From NCBI GenBank assembly GCA_026991575.1, contig JALXBF010000058.1, forward strand, positions 1 through 64,000: a DNA stretch of 64,000 nt, read 5' to 3'. Below are positions 50,320-54,877 of the stretch, piece after piece. A program made the translations under genes and the position numbers. The notes below the pieces were generated by a model, which had not been told where the DNA came from, ran no database searches, and saw only the letters and a list, made by a program, of their open reading frames with translations. Each line of letters starts with the position of its first letter. The first letter of the stretch is position 1. This DNA comes from Planctomycetota bacterium (GTDB lineage Bacteria; Planctomycetota; Planctomycetia; JALXBF01).

Positions 50320-53300
50320 TTACGAACAGCCCATCGAGTTTCCGCAATTCAAGCACCGGAAGCAACTGCCACTGCGCACCGTGATGGCACCGCAATTATC
50401 GCACGGCGGCGCGTCGCTCTGAAGCTGGGCCAACCAGGCAGATGGTGTGTAGGCCGGCGTTTGGCTCGGTTGCCCCTTCGGCTCCTGAGTTGACCCGCGC
50501 GCGGTGGCGGCGGCGTCTCGCTGATGCATTTGCTCTTCGGTCCGGTCCGGGGTCGGCGTGCTGGCAAGCTCGGCGCGGTGCGGCACCGTCTTCTCCCGGT
50601 AACCGGGCACGAAGCTAATGCCAAGCCAGCGGAAGATGTAATCCACGATGCTTTTCGCGTACGGGATGTCCGGATTTTCGGTGAAGCCGGACGGCTCGAA
50701 CCGGACATGCTCGAATTTCCGCACCAGCGCCTCCAGCGGCACACCGTACTGGAGTGCGATGCTGGTCAGGACGCCGATCGTGTCCATCAGCCCGCCGATT
50801 GTGCTCCCTTCCTTTGCCATGTTGATGAACAGTTCGCCGGGGCGGCCGTCGTCGTAGAACCCGACGGTGATGTAACCTTCGTAGCCGGCGATCGAGAACT
50901 TGTGTGTGATGGACCGGCGCGTGTCGGGCAGCCGCTCGCGACGGGGCCCCTGCGGAATCAGCTCACGCTGCACTACCTTGGGCCTGACCGGTTGCTGCCT
51001 GCGTGCCCGCTCGATAACGACCTCCTCGGGCCGCTTACCGGCAACACGAGTCTCGACGTCGCGTTCGGCCTGTTGGCGGTCCTCTTCGTTGCTCACGCTG
51101 GTCGACACCGGTTGACTGCCCTTGGAACCGTCCCGGTAAATGGCCAGTGCCTTCAAGCCGAGCCGCCAGCCTTCGATGTAGGCGTTCATGATGTCCTCGA
51201 CGGTCGACTTGTTCGGCATGTTCACCGTCTTGGAGATCGCTCCTGAGATGAACGGCTGCACTGCGGCCATCATCTTCAGGTGAGCTGAATAGTGTATGCA
51301 TCGGCCGCCTCCCGGGGGTGGGAACGCACAGTCGAACACGGGTAGATGCTCTTCTTTCAGTCCCGGCGCCCCCTCGATCTTGTCGTGTTGCTCCAGGTAC
51401 GCGACGATCTCCTCGATGCTGGCCTTGTCGTAGCCGAGCCGTTCCAGTGCCATCGGCACGGTGCGGTTCGGAATGCGGAGCATGCCACCGCCGGCCAACA
51501 GCTTGTACTTGATCAGCGCGATGTCCGGCTCGATGCCCGTCGTATCGCAGTCCATCATGAAACTGATCGTGCCTGTAGGCGCAACAACGGTGGCCTGAGC
51601 GTTGCGATAGCCGTGCCGCCGCCCCAGCTCCAGACAGCGGTCCCAGACGCTGCGTGCCGCTTCGCGCAGGTAGTCCGGGCAACTGGAGTGGATCCGCTCG
51701 ACGGCATCGCGATGCATCTGCATCACCTTCAGCATCGGCTCGCGGTTCTTCGCAAACTCCTCGAACGGCCCCATGTGGCCAGCAACCTCGGCCGAAGTCA
51801 GGTACGCCTGACCGGTCATGATCGCGCTGATGGCACCCGCCAGCGCACGTCCCTCGTCGGAGTCGTACGGCAAACCGAGCGACATCAGCAGCGAGCCGAG
51901 GTTGCTGAAGCCAAGCCCGAGCTGCCGGAACTTGTGCGCGTTGACCGCGATCTTCTCGGTCGGGTAGCTCGCGTTGTCGACGATGATCTCCTGAGCCAGG
52001 ATGAAGATCCGCACCGCGTTGCGGAAACTTTCCACATCAAACGTGCCATCGTCGCGGCGGAACTTCATCAAGTTGAGGCTGGCCAGGTTACAGGCGCTAT
52101 CGTCCACGTGCATGTACTCGGAGCAGGGGTTAGAGCTGTTGATCGGGCCGCTGTTCGGGCAGGTATGCCACCGCTGAATCGTGTCCTCGTACTGGACCCC
52201 GGGATCGCCGCACACCCACGTGCCCCAGGCGATCTTGCGCATCAGCTCGCGGGCGTCGTACGTGTCCATCACCTCGCCGGTAGTCACCGCCCTGGTCTGC
52301 CACTTGCGGCCATGGATCACCGCCTCCATGAACTCGTCGGTGACGCGCACCGACAGGTTCGCGTTCTGGAAGAAGACCGAACTGTACGCTTCGCCGTTGA
52401 AGTCCGCACTGTAGCCACACTTGATCAGGCAGTGCGCCTTTTTCTCCTCCTTCGCCTTGCACTCGATGAACTCCACGATATCCGGGTGCCAGATCCTCAG
52501 TGTCTGCATCTTGGCCGCCCGCCGCGTCTTGCCGCCGGACTTGACCACTGAGGCGATCGCATCATAGACGCGCATGAACGAGACGGGGCCGCTGGGACGG
52601 CCACCGCCGGAGAGTTTCTCCTTGCTGGAGCGCAGCGGGGTCAGGTCCGTACCGGTGCCGGAACCATACTTGAACAGCATTGCTTCGCTCCGGGCCAGCT
52701 CCATGATCGATTCCATGTTGTCCTCGACCGACTGGATGAAGCAGGCCGAGCACTGAGGGTACTCATACGGGGTCTCCACCCGCACAGCCATACGCGTCTG
52801 CGCATCCCAGCGATAGTTCGTTCCCTTGCCCTTGACGCCATACTGGTGATACAGCCCGACGTTGAACCAAACGGGTGAATTGAACGACCCGTACTGGTGC
52901 AGGCAGAGCCAGGTGAGCTCGTGGTAGAAGCGTTCGGCGTCTTCGCGGGTGGCAAAGTAGCCGTCCTTGATTCCCCAGTCGGTGATCGTTCGGGTGACGC
53001 GGTGGATGAGCTGCTTGACGCTATGTTCCCGTTCGTCCGTGCCCGGCTCGCCGTAGAAGTACTTGTTGGCCACGACGTTCGTTGCCAGACGGCTCCAGAA
53101 CTTGGGCACTTCGCAGTTCTTCTGCTCGAAGATGACGTTACCCTGCTCGTCACGGATCACCGCGGTACGAGTCTCCCATTCGACCTCATCAAACGGATGC
53201 ACCCCCTCGGTGGAAAAGTACCGTGGGATCTCAAGCCCCCCCTTGCGGTCCCGCCGAGCGTCCAGGGCCGTTCGAATGCGTTCTAGGCGGTCGACTTCGT

Positions 53301-53349
53301 GGGTCGTTACCGCACCGTTGTTCCGCCGCGTCTCGTGCCGTTCACTCAT
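50320..53349 (-). CDS. nrdJ: Class II (adenosylcobalamin-dependent) ribonucleotide reductase
   Basis: FNSPVWFN, QCSACFI, GGKTRRAAKM, SNPCSEY, APTGTIS, TSCPD-like C-terminal domain, terminal CxxC...CxxC. Start ATG 53349. Confidence 0.95.
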   Translation of the reverse strand: MSERHETRRNNGAVTTHEVDRLERIRTALDARRDRKGGLEIPRYFSTEGVHPFDEVEWETRTAVIRDEQGNVIFEQKNCEVPKFWSRLATNVVANKYFYGEPGTDEREHSVKQLIHRVTRTITDWGIKDGYFATREDAERFYHELTWLCLHQYGSFNSPVWFNVGLYHQYGVKGKGTNYRWDAQTRMAVRVETPYEYPQCSACFIQSVEDNMESIMELARSEAMLFKYGSGTGTDLTPLRSSKEKLSGGGRPSGPVSFMRVYDAIASVVKSGGKTRRAAKMQTLRIWHPDIVEFIECKAKEEKKAHCLIKCGYSADFNGEAYSSVFFQNANLSVRVTDEFMEAVIHGRKWQTRAVTTGEVMDTYDARELMRKIAWGTWVCGDPGVQYEDTIQRWHTCPNSGPINSSNPCSEYMHVDDSACNLASLNLMKFRRDDGTFDVESFRNAVRIFILAQEIIVDNASYPTEKIAVNAHKFRQLGLGFSNLGSLLMSLGLPYDSDEGRALAGAISAIMTGQAYLTSAEVAGHMGPFEEFAKNREPMLKVMQMHRDAVERIHSSCPDYLREAARSVWDRCLELGRRHGYRNAQATVVAPTGTISFMMDCDTTGIEPDIALIKYKLLAGGGMLRIPNRTVPMALERLGYDKASIEEIVAYLEQHDKIEGAPGLKEEHLPVFDCAFPPPGGGRCIHYSAHLKMMAAVQPFISGAISKTVNMPNKSTVEDIMNAYIEGWRLGLKALAIYRDGSKGSQPVSTSVSNEEDRQQAERDVETRVAGKRPEEVVIERARRQQPVRPKVVQRELIPQGPRRERLPDTRRSITHKFSIAGYEGYITVGFYDDGRPGELFINMAKEGSTIGGLMDTIGVLTSIALQYGVPLEALVRKFEHVRFEPSGFTENPDIPYAKSIVDYIFRWLGISFVPGYREKTVPHRAELASTPTPDRTEEQMHQRDAAATARGSTQEPKGQPSQTPAYTPSAWLAQLQSDAPPCDNCGAITVRSGSCFRCLNCGNSMGCS

Positions 53350-53467
53350 GACTTGCCCCCAAAACGCTAACGTCCTTGGTTCGTACCAGCGGCCCTTCAC
53401 CCAATCGTAGGCCACCGAAGCGGGCCCCCGGCCGTGCCTGCTGGCGGGTACGCCGGCGGCACCGCAG

Positions 53468-53515
53468 GCCCCAGATATTGGGCTATGGCCGCCCCACATC
53501 CCCAATATCTTGGGG
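53468..53515. promoter_or_regulatory. Tandem NrdR boxes
   Basis: GCCCCAGATATTGGGC (53468-83) and CCCCAATATCTTGGGG (53500-15), offset 32 bp, fit the NrdR consensus core CwAtATmTwG. A minus-strand TTGACA at 53529-34 places the -10 region in box 2. Confidence 0.8.
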
Positions 53516-53632
53516 ATCTGCGTCCGGCTGTCAAGTCCCCACCGGCAGAATCGCTCAACCCCCGCCGAAACCCAACCTTGCGGCCGGAGACCACCGGCAT
53601 CGGCGAATACGGCCGTTTTCCCGGTGCGGCCC

Positions 53633-53662
53633 TTGACATCCGGCCCCGCGGCGGGTCAGAAT
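53633..53662 (+). promoter_or_regulatory. Putative sigma70 promoter of the histone gene
   Basis: TTGACA (53633-38), 18-nt spacer, CAGAAT (53657-62). Confidence 0.5.
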
Positions 53663-53793
53663 CGGTCAGACAGCCGGATTTGGCGGTTTCCGGGCGGATT
53701 CGCGACTGCTGCATCCACTGAGGAGTTTTGCTCAGGTTCGATGGCACGGCCCGGTGGTTTCGTTTGCGAGCTAGCTCGAAAGGAGGTGTCGCT

Positions 53794-53991
53794 ATGGCAA
53801 AGAAGAAAGCAGCAAACCGCGAACCGCTTGTCGTAGGCTCCAAGGTGAAGGCGTTCATCGGCTCGAACAACATGCGGATGGACGGGCAACTGCTAGAGGC
53901 CCTGAACGCAAAGGTGTACGAGCTGCTTGAAGCTGCCATCAAACGGTGTCAGGCGAACGGACGCTCCACGGTTCGTCCGCACGATCTGTAA
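53794..53991 (+). CDS. Bacterial histone-fold protein (65 aa)
   Basis: LVVGSKVKAFI...EALNAKVYELLEAAIKRCQANGRSTVRPHDL; RxTVxxxD histone signature; AAGGAGGT SD. Confidence 0.88.
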   Translation: MAKKKAANREPLVVGSKVKAFIGSNNMRMDGQLLEALNAKVYELLEAAIKRCQANGRSTVRPHDL

Positions 53992-54042
53992 GGTCCACAC
54001 ATGAGTTGATTCGACACCGCCCGGAACCGCCCTCCCGGCAAT

Positions 54043-54084
54043 GGCCCGGCACCGCGACCGCTGCCGGGCTCTGTTCTTTTTTTT
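54043..54084 (+). terminator. Intrinsic terminator after the histone gene
   Basis: GGCCCGGCA/TGCCGGGCT stem, then CTGTTC and T8. Confidence 0.6.
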
Positions 54085-54121
54085 CCCGGCGACGGTAGCC
54101 ACCTCGCTCAGGCCGCGCATG

Positions 54122-54148
54122 AAAACAGCCCGGCGCTGCCACCGGGCT
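54122..54148 (-). terminator. Putative terminator of rplU
   Basis: Minus strand AGCCCGG-tggcagcg-CCGGGCT followed by GTTTT. Confidence 0.45.
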
Positions 54149-54175
54149 CTCTCTGTTGCCGCTAACTGGAACCGG

Positions 54176-54520
54176 CTAGCTGTTGGACTCCTGGGAAACG
54201 GCTCCGCCCAGCTCGATCGCCTCGATCACCACACGCGTCGCGCGCTGGCGGTGCCCTTTACGTCGTCGGTAGTTTTTCCTTCGCTTGAACTTCTCCACGT
54301 AGATCTTCGGCCCCTTGACATGCTCCAGCACCCGGCCGACGACGCGTGCCTCGCTAACCACGGGCTGGCCCACCAGGACCTGCTCGGCGCTGCGGCACAG
54401 GAGCACGCGGTCAAAGACCAGCTCATCGCCCGGGTTGAGCCGTTCGCGGTAGTCGACGTCCAGCACCATCCCACGCTCGACCCGGTACTGGTGGCTACCG
54501 TCTTCGATCACCGCATACAT
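54176..54520 (-). CDS. rplU: 50S ribosomal protein L21
   Basis: MYAVIEDGSHQYRV...KFKRRKNYRRRKGHRQ. Confidence 0.96.
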   Translation of the reverse strand: MYAVIEDGSHQYRVERGMVLDVDYRERLNPGDELVFDRVLLCRSAEQVLVGQPVVSEARVVGRVLEHVKGPKIYVEKFKRRKNYRRRKGHRQRATRVVIEAIELGGAVSQESNS

Positions 54521-54877
54521 CGGTCGCAGTCTCCGAATGGCAAGCCGTTCGTTCAGGCAACAGGCTCGGAATTATGGGCGGTCGGAGCGTGATGTTCAAG
54601 GCCGGCCGGCGCGGCGGCATGGCTTGCCCGATGCGGGCCGGGTTGCTACGCTTAAGTGGAGACAGCGAAGAACCTCTGCCTTGTGCGTGATAGACGGTAT
54701 TTTGACGAACCGACACCTGTCCCGCAGGGAGCCTACATGGCCCGGGGAGGCGTATAGCCGCGGTCGTGGCGGCCGTGGATCACGCGAGCCGGGTCTGCGG
54801 CGCCCACTTGGCTTGCGGGTTCTCAAAACGCCGTCTACACGGCAAATGGCGGAGGTTTTTCCTTTTTTGGGCAGCCC

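Follow-up and report, generated by a model that had tools for sequence, protein, structure and literature searches.

A predicted face-to-face histone gene in a hydrothermal-vent planctomycete

The histone gene and its surroundings

The window (the whole stretch of 64,000 nucleotides that was analyzed) belongs to the genome of an uncultured hydrothermal-vent planctomycete (4.96 Mb, 64.2% G+C). It harbored a short gene for a predicted histone of the face-to-face (FtF) family, located between genes coding for a ribonucleotide reductase and ribosomal protein L21, with the following features:

50320..53349/53505, minus strand: nrdJ, class II-like ribonucleotide reductase, divergent from the histone gene
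53633-53662, plus strand: sigma-70-like promoter candidate TTGACA-N18-CAGAAT, implying a leader of ~125 nt
53780-53787, plus strand: Shine-Dalgarno sequence AAGGAGGT, with a 6-nt spacer to the ATG
53794-53991, plus strand: FtF histone gene (predicted), a 198-nt open reading frame (ORF) from ATG 53794 to TAA 53989-53991, 65 aa
54043-54085, plus strand: intrinsic-terminator-like hairpin and U-rich tract, with a 9-bp G+C stem (54043-54051/54062-54070) followed by TCTGTTCTTTTTTTT
54176..54520, minus strand: rplU (L21), convergent with the histone gene

The 65-codon ORF is a real gene. Its product, MAKKKAANREPLVVGSKVKAFIGSNNMRMDGQLLEALNAKVYELLEAAIKRCQANGRSTVRPHDL, is a basic protein of 65 aa and 7.15 kDa (pI 10.0, 12 K+R versus 6 D+E). 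A word-indexed similarity search with this protein retrieved 51 proteins at E <= 0.001, and a profile run against 1.84 billion cluster representatives retrieved 2404 at E <= 0.001, with 574 reaching E <= 1e-10. Compared with the gene of a genome from the same family (G001), 21 of the 57 ungapped codons were identical, 23 displayed synonymous differences only and 13 were non-synonymous. Differences were distributed 13/6/29 over the three codon positions, which indicates purifying selection on the histone protein; it is this codon comparison, together with the 51 homologues, that identifies the ORF as a gene.

As an earlier note on this DNA had reported, the histone frame is hidden within a longer mechanical ORF call, here an 87-aa frame starting at TTG 53728. 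Homologues started at the same MAK(K), the first methionine being found in at least 90% of 46 aligned rows, which favors ATG 53794 over the upstream TTG. This alignment retained 46 of the 51 matches and omitted five calls of 75-99 aa (P0006, P0026, P0031, P0037, P0042), probably mis-started ORFs. An 87-aa product starting from TTG 53728 is hardly credible, and so is a chance frame. The longer frame does stay open, but its extension (MLRFDGTARWFRLRASSKGGVA) is not common to the homologues and would contain the Shine-Dalgarno sequence, and the upstream frame of G001 is different (MHQERKGGRT); a chance frame is at odds with the homologues and with the third-position bias of the divergence.

The expression signals described in the earlier note (Shine-Dalgarno, TTGACA-N18-CAGAAT, hairpin with T8) were all in place. 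Scanning 53300-54400 gave a single promoter-like site, compared with an average of 0.1 over 50 shuffles, and its counterpart in G001 (TTGACA-N17-GAAAAT) was located ~140 nt before the histone ATG. The motif AAGGAGGT occurred 101 times on both strands of the genome for ~108 expected from composition, so it is not common furniture of this genome; G001 carried AAAGGAGGT at the corresponding place. Downstream of the gene, the 45 nt before the T8 tract folded at -21.1 kcal/mol, and only 15 runs of at least eight T were found in the whole genome (both strands). Given this scarcity, a hairpin of -21 kcal/mol with such a tract 52 nt behind the stop codon is unlikely to have arisen by chance. The hairpin was established by folding, its loop being beyond the limit of the terminator scan, which did not call it. 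The whole 104-nt stretch containing it folded no better than shuffles (z -0.43), and the terminator sequence was not conserved in G001. No Rfam family matched 53200-54300 at E <= 1, and the putative 5' leaders of the source genome and G001 were no more stably folded than shuffled sequences (z +0.92 and -0.86, respectively), hence no leader element is proposed.

With nrdJ divergent and rplU convergent, the histone gene must be monocistronic. The same nrdJ / histone / rplU arrangement was kept in G001. When synteny was searched by tblastn at 81 histone loci (L007-L087), NrdJ was matched at one, L21 at one and RarA at none, the sole locus being that of the family-mate (L087); the histone gene has no phylum-wide neighborhood. 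Altogether, the expression signals suggest that the gene is well expressed, from which we infer a high abundance of the protein. Sequencing runs matching 53400-54600 were DNA only, all labelled hydrothermal vent metagenome, with no RNA run among them.

Both flanking genes displayed features of their own. Two imperfect palindromes, CCCCAGATATTGGG and CCCCAATATCTTGGGG, were found at 53469-53482 and 53500-53515 (32 bp centre to centre), located 120-170 nt upstream of where nrdJ probably starts (ATG 53349, minus strand; TTG 53505 looks over-extended), and two like boxes were present at the same place in G001. They resemble tandem NrdR boxes. The genome encoded NrdR (TIGR00244, 192.7 bits, C156:20453-20887). 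Although located ~120 nt from the histone promoter candidate, these boxes probably serve nrdJ only. On the other side, rplU had its own terminator-like hairpin (window positions 54127-54148, minus strand). The interval between rplU and the histone gene (53992-54175) leaves no room for rpmA, the usual rplU-rpmA pair being split, and the L21 of G001 displayed a long Pro/Glu/Ala-rich C-terminal extension (178 aa).

Fold, family and predicted tetramer

The AlphaFold2 model of the protein (mean pLDDT 88.3) displayed helices at residues 15-24 and 33-54 and a turn at 62-64, giving the following layout:

Residues 1-11: basic disordered tail
Residues 15-24: alpha1
Residues 33-54: alpha2 (22 residues)
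Residues 57-64: L2 motif R57-x-T59-x4-D64, read R57-S-T59-V-R-P-H-D64
Residues 62-64: alpha3, a single turn

Sequence and structure searches converged on the same solved relatives, whose identities were obtained from Foldseek: HLp of Leptospira perolatii (9QT0), HTkC of Thermococcus kodakarensis (9F2C) and HBb, or Bd0055, of Bdellovibrio (8CMP/8FVX). With the single sequence, phmmer against PDB sequences matched 9qt0_A at E 7e-12 (ungapped over residues 6-64), followed by 9f2c_A at 9e-7 and 8cmp/8fvx at ~0.02 (HBb 0.017). The profile of the 46 homologues gave HLp at 3.4e-25 (91 bits), HBb at 9e-13 (51 bits) and HTkC at 1.9e-12 (50 bits), with no nucleosomal histone at E <= 0.001. Foldseek placed HLp first among PDB structures (E 3e-5, TM 0.95 on target, 45% identity over 56 residues), then HTkC and HBb, while nucleosomal histones only appeared at E > 0.1.

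These results support a histone-fold singlet of the alpha3-truncated FtF family: as in the FtF class, whose alpha3 retains 3-4 residues, alpha3 is cut to one turn and alpha2 is shortened. The earlier note had read a histone fold from the letters, a reading that held up in the sequence, profile, fold and multimer tests. The Foldseek and AlphaFold comparison it had suggested was run, and superposed the model on HLp at an rmsd of 0.7 A with a histone fold. Its likeness to the Leptospira histone and to Bd0055 also stood, HLp being the closest solved relative and HBb still detectable, as did the truncated alpha3 (the one turn at 62-64 of the model) and the RxTVxxxD motif of L2/alpha3, found here as R57, T59 and D64 in all 46 homologues.

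Reference family models did not capture this protein. The best Pfam match, DUF1931 (PF09123), was below its cut-off (E 0.0024, 18.5 versus 21.8 bits) and covered residues 33-65 only, and PF00808 (CBFD_NFYB_HMF) was weaker (E 0.19, 12.5 versus 21.4 bits). At E <= 0.01, these two models matched 11 and 2 of the 46 homologues, respectively, and none of the NCBIfam models matched the histone. Falling below Pfam cut-offs and having no NCBIfam model, the FtF family is left in an annotation gap in which its genes are filed as hypothetical proteins, and such genes can also vanish inside longer mechanical ORFs.

Among histones of known structure, HLp (PDB 9QT0/9QT1/9QT2, Hu et al. 2025, PMC12701072) was the closest relative, sharing the length class (63 versus 65 aa, aligned ungapped), short alpha2, one-turn alpha3, RD clamp, R/N/R tetramer residues, the A/G-S-K "paired ends of helices" motif, the T/S-T contacts of L2 and the predicted tetramer interface. 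It differs at K21, K23 and T27, which are G, N and M here, and at the secondary interface contacts S52, T61 and F63, which are A54, H63 and L65. Context differs as well: nrdJ and rplU flank the gene here, versus SMC/MAP/DUF350 in Leptospira, and the present host encodes HU and a DUF1931 doublet, whereas passages of PMC12701072 describe Leptospira as devoid of HU and Dps. HTkC (PDB 9F2C) shares the FtF tetramer class and the fold (Foldseek E 6e-4, TM 0.91, 41% identity), but belongs to an archaeal cluster and has no basic N-terminal tail, with a profile E value of 1.9e-12 against 3.4e-25 for HLp. DUF1931 pseudodimeric histones (Aquifex Aq_328 type, PF09123) have the histone fold, and the protein matched part of their model; they are doublets that, in the sections of PMC11390915 dealing with them, appear without the usual DNA-binding residues, whereas the histone studied here is a singlet.

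FtF histones form a closed homotetramer through the end of alpha2, L2 and alpha3, according to the parts of PMC12701072 and PMC11390915 that treat them, with conserved tetramer residues given as R49, N53 and R55 of HLp (Hu et al. 2025, PMC12701072, in its section on these residues), R48 and N52 in the FtF profile. HLp numbering being that of our protein minus 2, the ungapped alignment to 9qt0 assigned these residues to R51, N55 and R57. R57 also forms, with D64 (HLp D62), the RD clamp. Nine positions were invariant in all 46 homologues: V14, S16, K17, A48, R51, N55, R57, T59 and D64.

Modeled as four copies, the histone obtained an ipSAE of 0.88 (0.89, 0.87 and 0.88 in the three runs), versus a best of 0.00 in three controls. 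Runs shared at least 97% of their contacts, with a partner pLDDT of at least 88. In calibration, the mark was reached by 20 of 30 proteins solved as one-chain pairs and by 1 of 23 solved as single chains, counts that are only a rough guide for the histone, modeled with its own alignment and as four copies. Contacts between the two predicted dimers involved residues 50-51, 54-55, 57, 61 and 63-64, which correspond to the HLp interface. This score may come from the model's memory of the solved 9QT0, in which case it would express likeness to HLp and not independent proof.

As an alternative, the protein could be a bacterial dimer histone like HBb/Bd0055, remaining strictly dimeric and bending DNA instead of wrapping it; this appears very unlikely. 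HBb (PDB 8CMP, 8FVX, 9EZZ) is an alpha3-truncated singlet with the same S-K motif in alpha1 and R-x-T-x-x-x-x-D motif in L2. The short alpha2 and alpha3 are common to both proteins, HBb was detectable with the single sequence (E 0.017) and with the profile (9e-13), and bacterial dimer histones are also listed in Planctomycetota in the parts of PMC11390915 dealing with their distribution. Nevertheless, identity between HBb and the histone was 31-32%, and HLp scored 40 bits above HBb with the family profile, the sequence being closer to this bacterial FtF histone than to dimer or nucleosomal histones. Above all, the dimer class is depicted without these R and N residues in the relevant passages of Schwab et al. 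(2024, PMC11390915), as is HBb, a strict DNA-bending dimer, in those of PMC12701072 and PMC11390915, while R51 and N55 are invariant here, and a tetramer through the HLp interface, above the dimer state of that class, was predicted (0.88 versus 0.00 in the controls). The assignment to the short face-to-face type, also advanced in the earlier note, was borne out by the invariant R51, N55 and R57 along with the predicted tetramer.

Distribution of the gene in Planctomycetota

The FtF histone was scarce among close relatives of the source genome and common in the phylum. Among the 41 nearest relatives, it was found in two, the source genome itself and its family-mate G001. Three of 401 genomes of the class had a match, two solid ones (both from this family) and a marginal, partial one, while 186 of 401 genomes of the phylum harbored the gene (124 of the 244 genomes at least 90% complete). 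Among the genomes searched, then, the gene is common across the phylum and, within the class, confined to this family. Being seen only in its own family within the class, the histone provides no general explanation of condensed nucleoids. The marginal class match (G229:C159:6522-6608, plus strand, locus L088) had an E value of 7e-4 and covered profile positions 38-66 only, within a 185-aa frame, and could represent the C-terminus of a histone fold that has been fused or has degenerated.

The named relatives of the histone (the best 80 of 374 stretches confirmed among 453 pattern matches) were mostly metagenome-assembled genomes (MAGs) of Planctomycetota (Sedimentisphaerales, Phycisphaerae, "Pirellulales"), along with Plesiocystis pacifica and a few others. 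Those of the neighboring L21 were Gemmataceae, Gemmatales and Symmachiella, at 48-56% identity. The relatives of both proteins point to Planctomycetota and, as judged from the L21 matches, the lineage is probably a deep order of the class Planctomycetia, that of Gemmata and other cultured planctomycetes.

The gene tree comprised 79 rows and 61 columns: the source histone plus 78 rows from 81 loci, the three remaining loci being left out because no ORF passed the motif and length filter. Only 3 of its 74 inner branches were starred. The source histone and that of G001 paired at an SH-aLRT of 94, but this pair had no resolved position in the tree, so no donor can be named.

Histones of "Pirellulales" MAGs (loci L009, L012, L014, L016, L052 and others) were nearly or fully identical to those of Sedimentisphaerales/Phycisphaerae MAGs; in the tree they interleaved with Sedimentisphaerales sequences, one of them being identical. 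The 401 class genomes gave no such "Pirellulales" match outside the source family. The "Pirellulales" record titles may be wrong at the class level. In the cluster-representative search, the top FtF-profile representatives (P0172-P0187 and others) were 118-150 aa long with two matched stretches each; these are tandem FtF-type doublets, distinct from the DUF1931 doublets.

The histone family is already known, and FtF histones of Planctomycetota are already catalogued in PMC11390915 and PMC12701072, both of which list the phylum as one of the leading bacterial sources of these proteins. The phylogenetic persistence of histones in Planctomycetota is likewise noted in a passage of PMC10627809. A literature search on histones and nucleoids in the phylum listed no experimental work on any planctomycete histone in its 15 best-ranked matches, and the word histone is absent from a 2025 review of the phylum. 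The present gene opens no new question in itself. What it adds is a well-delimited example of an FtF histone gene, complete with promoter candidate, ribosome-binding site and terminator, in a lineage whose relatives lack one.

DNA contact and the other chromatin proteins of the genome

Besides the FtF histone, the genome encoded a single HU (~102-105 bits, Pfam) and a second histone-fold protein:

G000:C158:1017-1430 (locus L003), minus strand: full DUF1931 doublet (Pfam ~168-169 bits; 149-aa cluster)

This doublet was found in 2 of 201 class genomes (the source genome and G001) and in 1 of 401 phylum genomes (the source genome only). Its nearest named relatives were from Actinomycetota (50-54% identity), and the family seems to have gained it horizontally. 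Among the genomes searched, the family with the DUF1931 doublet is also the sole family of its class with an FtF singlet. With HU and the doublet present, the histone is not necessarily the main chromatin protein of its host, unlike in Leptospira; the L. interrogans orthologue of HLp is described as abundant and probably essential in the part of Hocher et al. (2023, PMC10627809) devoted to it.

In the reading that we consider highly probable, the protein is a minimal FtF histone that forms a closed tetramer and wraps DNA as a general nucleoid protein produced from its own transcription unit. Two chains would first pair head to tail through alpha1 and alpha2 into a histone-fold dimer, and two such dimers would then assemble into a closed, rigid homotetramer by contacts of L2, the one-turn alpha3 and the C-terminal part of alpha2 (R51, N55, R57, H63, D64, L65). 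By analogy with HLp, the perimeter of this tetramer would expose a basic/polar ring made of S16, K17, K19, G31, S58 and T59 together with the MAKKK tail. From the same analogy we infer DNA binding and wrapping: the tetramer would bind DNA irrespective of sequence, wrap ~60 bp and compact the nucleoid, acting as a general nucleoid protein beside the single HU. The promoter candidate, strong ribosome-binding site and terminator would make the gene a transcription unit of its own.

The putative DNA-contact surface was preserved in part. Six HLp contact residues were kept (S16, K17, K19, G31, S58, T59) while two were changed (K21 to G23 and T27 to M29), and the family consensus IKSK reads IGSN in the source genome and IGEQ in G001. 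With these changes, the basic ring is thinner than in HLp.

A protein with a true FtF fold could instead play a minor or specialized role: it might bridge DNA, act in the nucleoid under certain conditions only, or serve as a protein-protein adaptor, with HU packing the bulk of the DNA. The presence of HU and of a second histone-fold protein and the replacement of the alpha1/L1-face lysines in this lineage agree with such a role. Bridging is left possible by the authors of HLp in their discussion of DNA binding (PMC12701072), and prokaryotic histone-fold proteins need not all organize genomes, as pointed out in a passage of PMC11390915. Opposed to it are the strong purifying selection and the signals carried by a monocistronic gene of only 65 codons (a perfect -35 hexamer, AAGGAGGT and a hairpin-T8 terminator), and we regard a minor role as unlikely. 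Quite unlikely, too, is a broader scenario in which the vent family gained both the FtF singlet and the DUF1931 doublet horizontally and runs a mixed chromatin of HU, histone and pseudodimer. There, the lysine-depleted alpha1/L1 face (IKSK to IGSN) and the KKK tail would lead to a mode of DNA contact unlike that of HLp, such as bridging or tail-dependent binding in place of a full 60-bp wrap. A lineage that also harbors HU and a DUF1931 doublet would offer a convenient case for how bacterial histones share the nucleoid with classical nucleoid proteins.

A search of the source genome with PF00808 gave no match. A second DUF1931-like match (C122:11675-11809, E 0.53) was rejected as chance, lying inside an 875-aa ORF on the other strand, and the fourth one (C143) had an E value of 6.9. 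A 54-aa ORF at G000:C122:34439-34603 (minus strand), with AAGGAGG 6 nt before its ATG and no Pfam match, consisted nearly entirely of KKKTAA-type repeats (MAKARKKKTAAKKKTAAKKK...). From its composition one might guess, and only guess, at an H1/Hc-like lysine-rich nucleoid protein.
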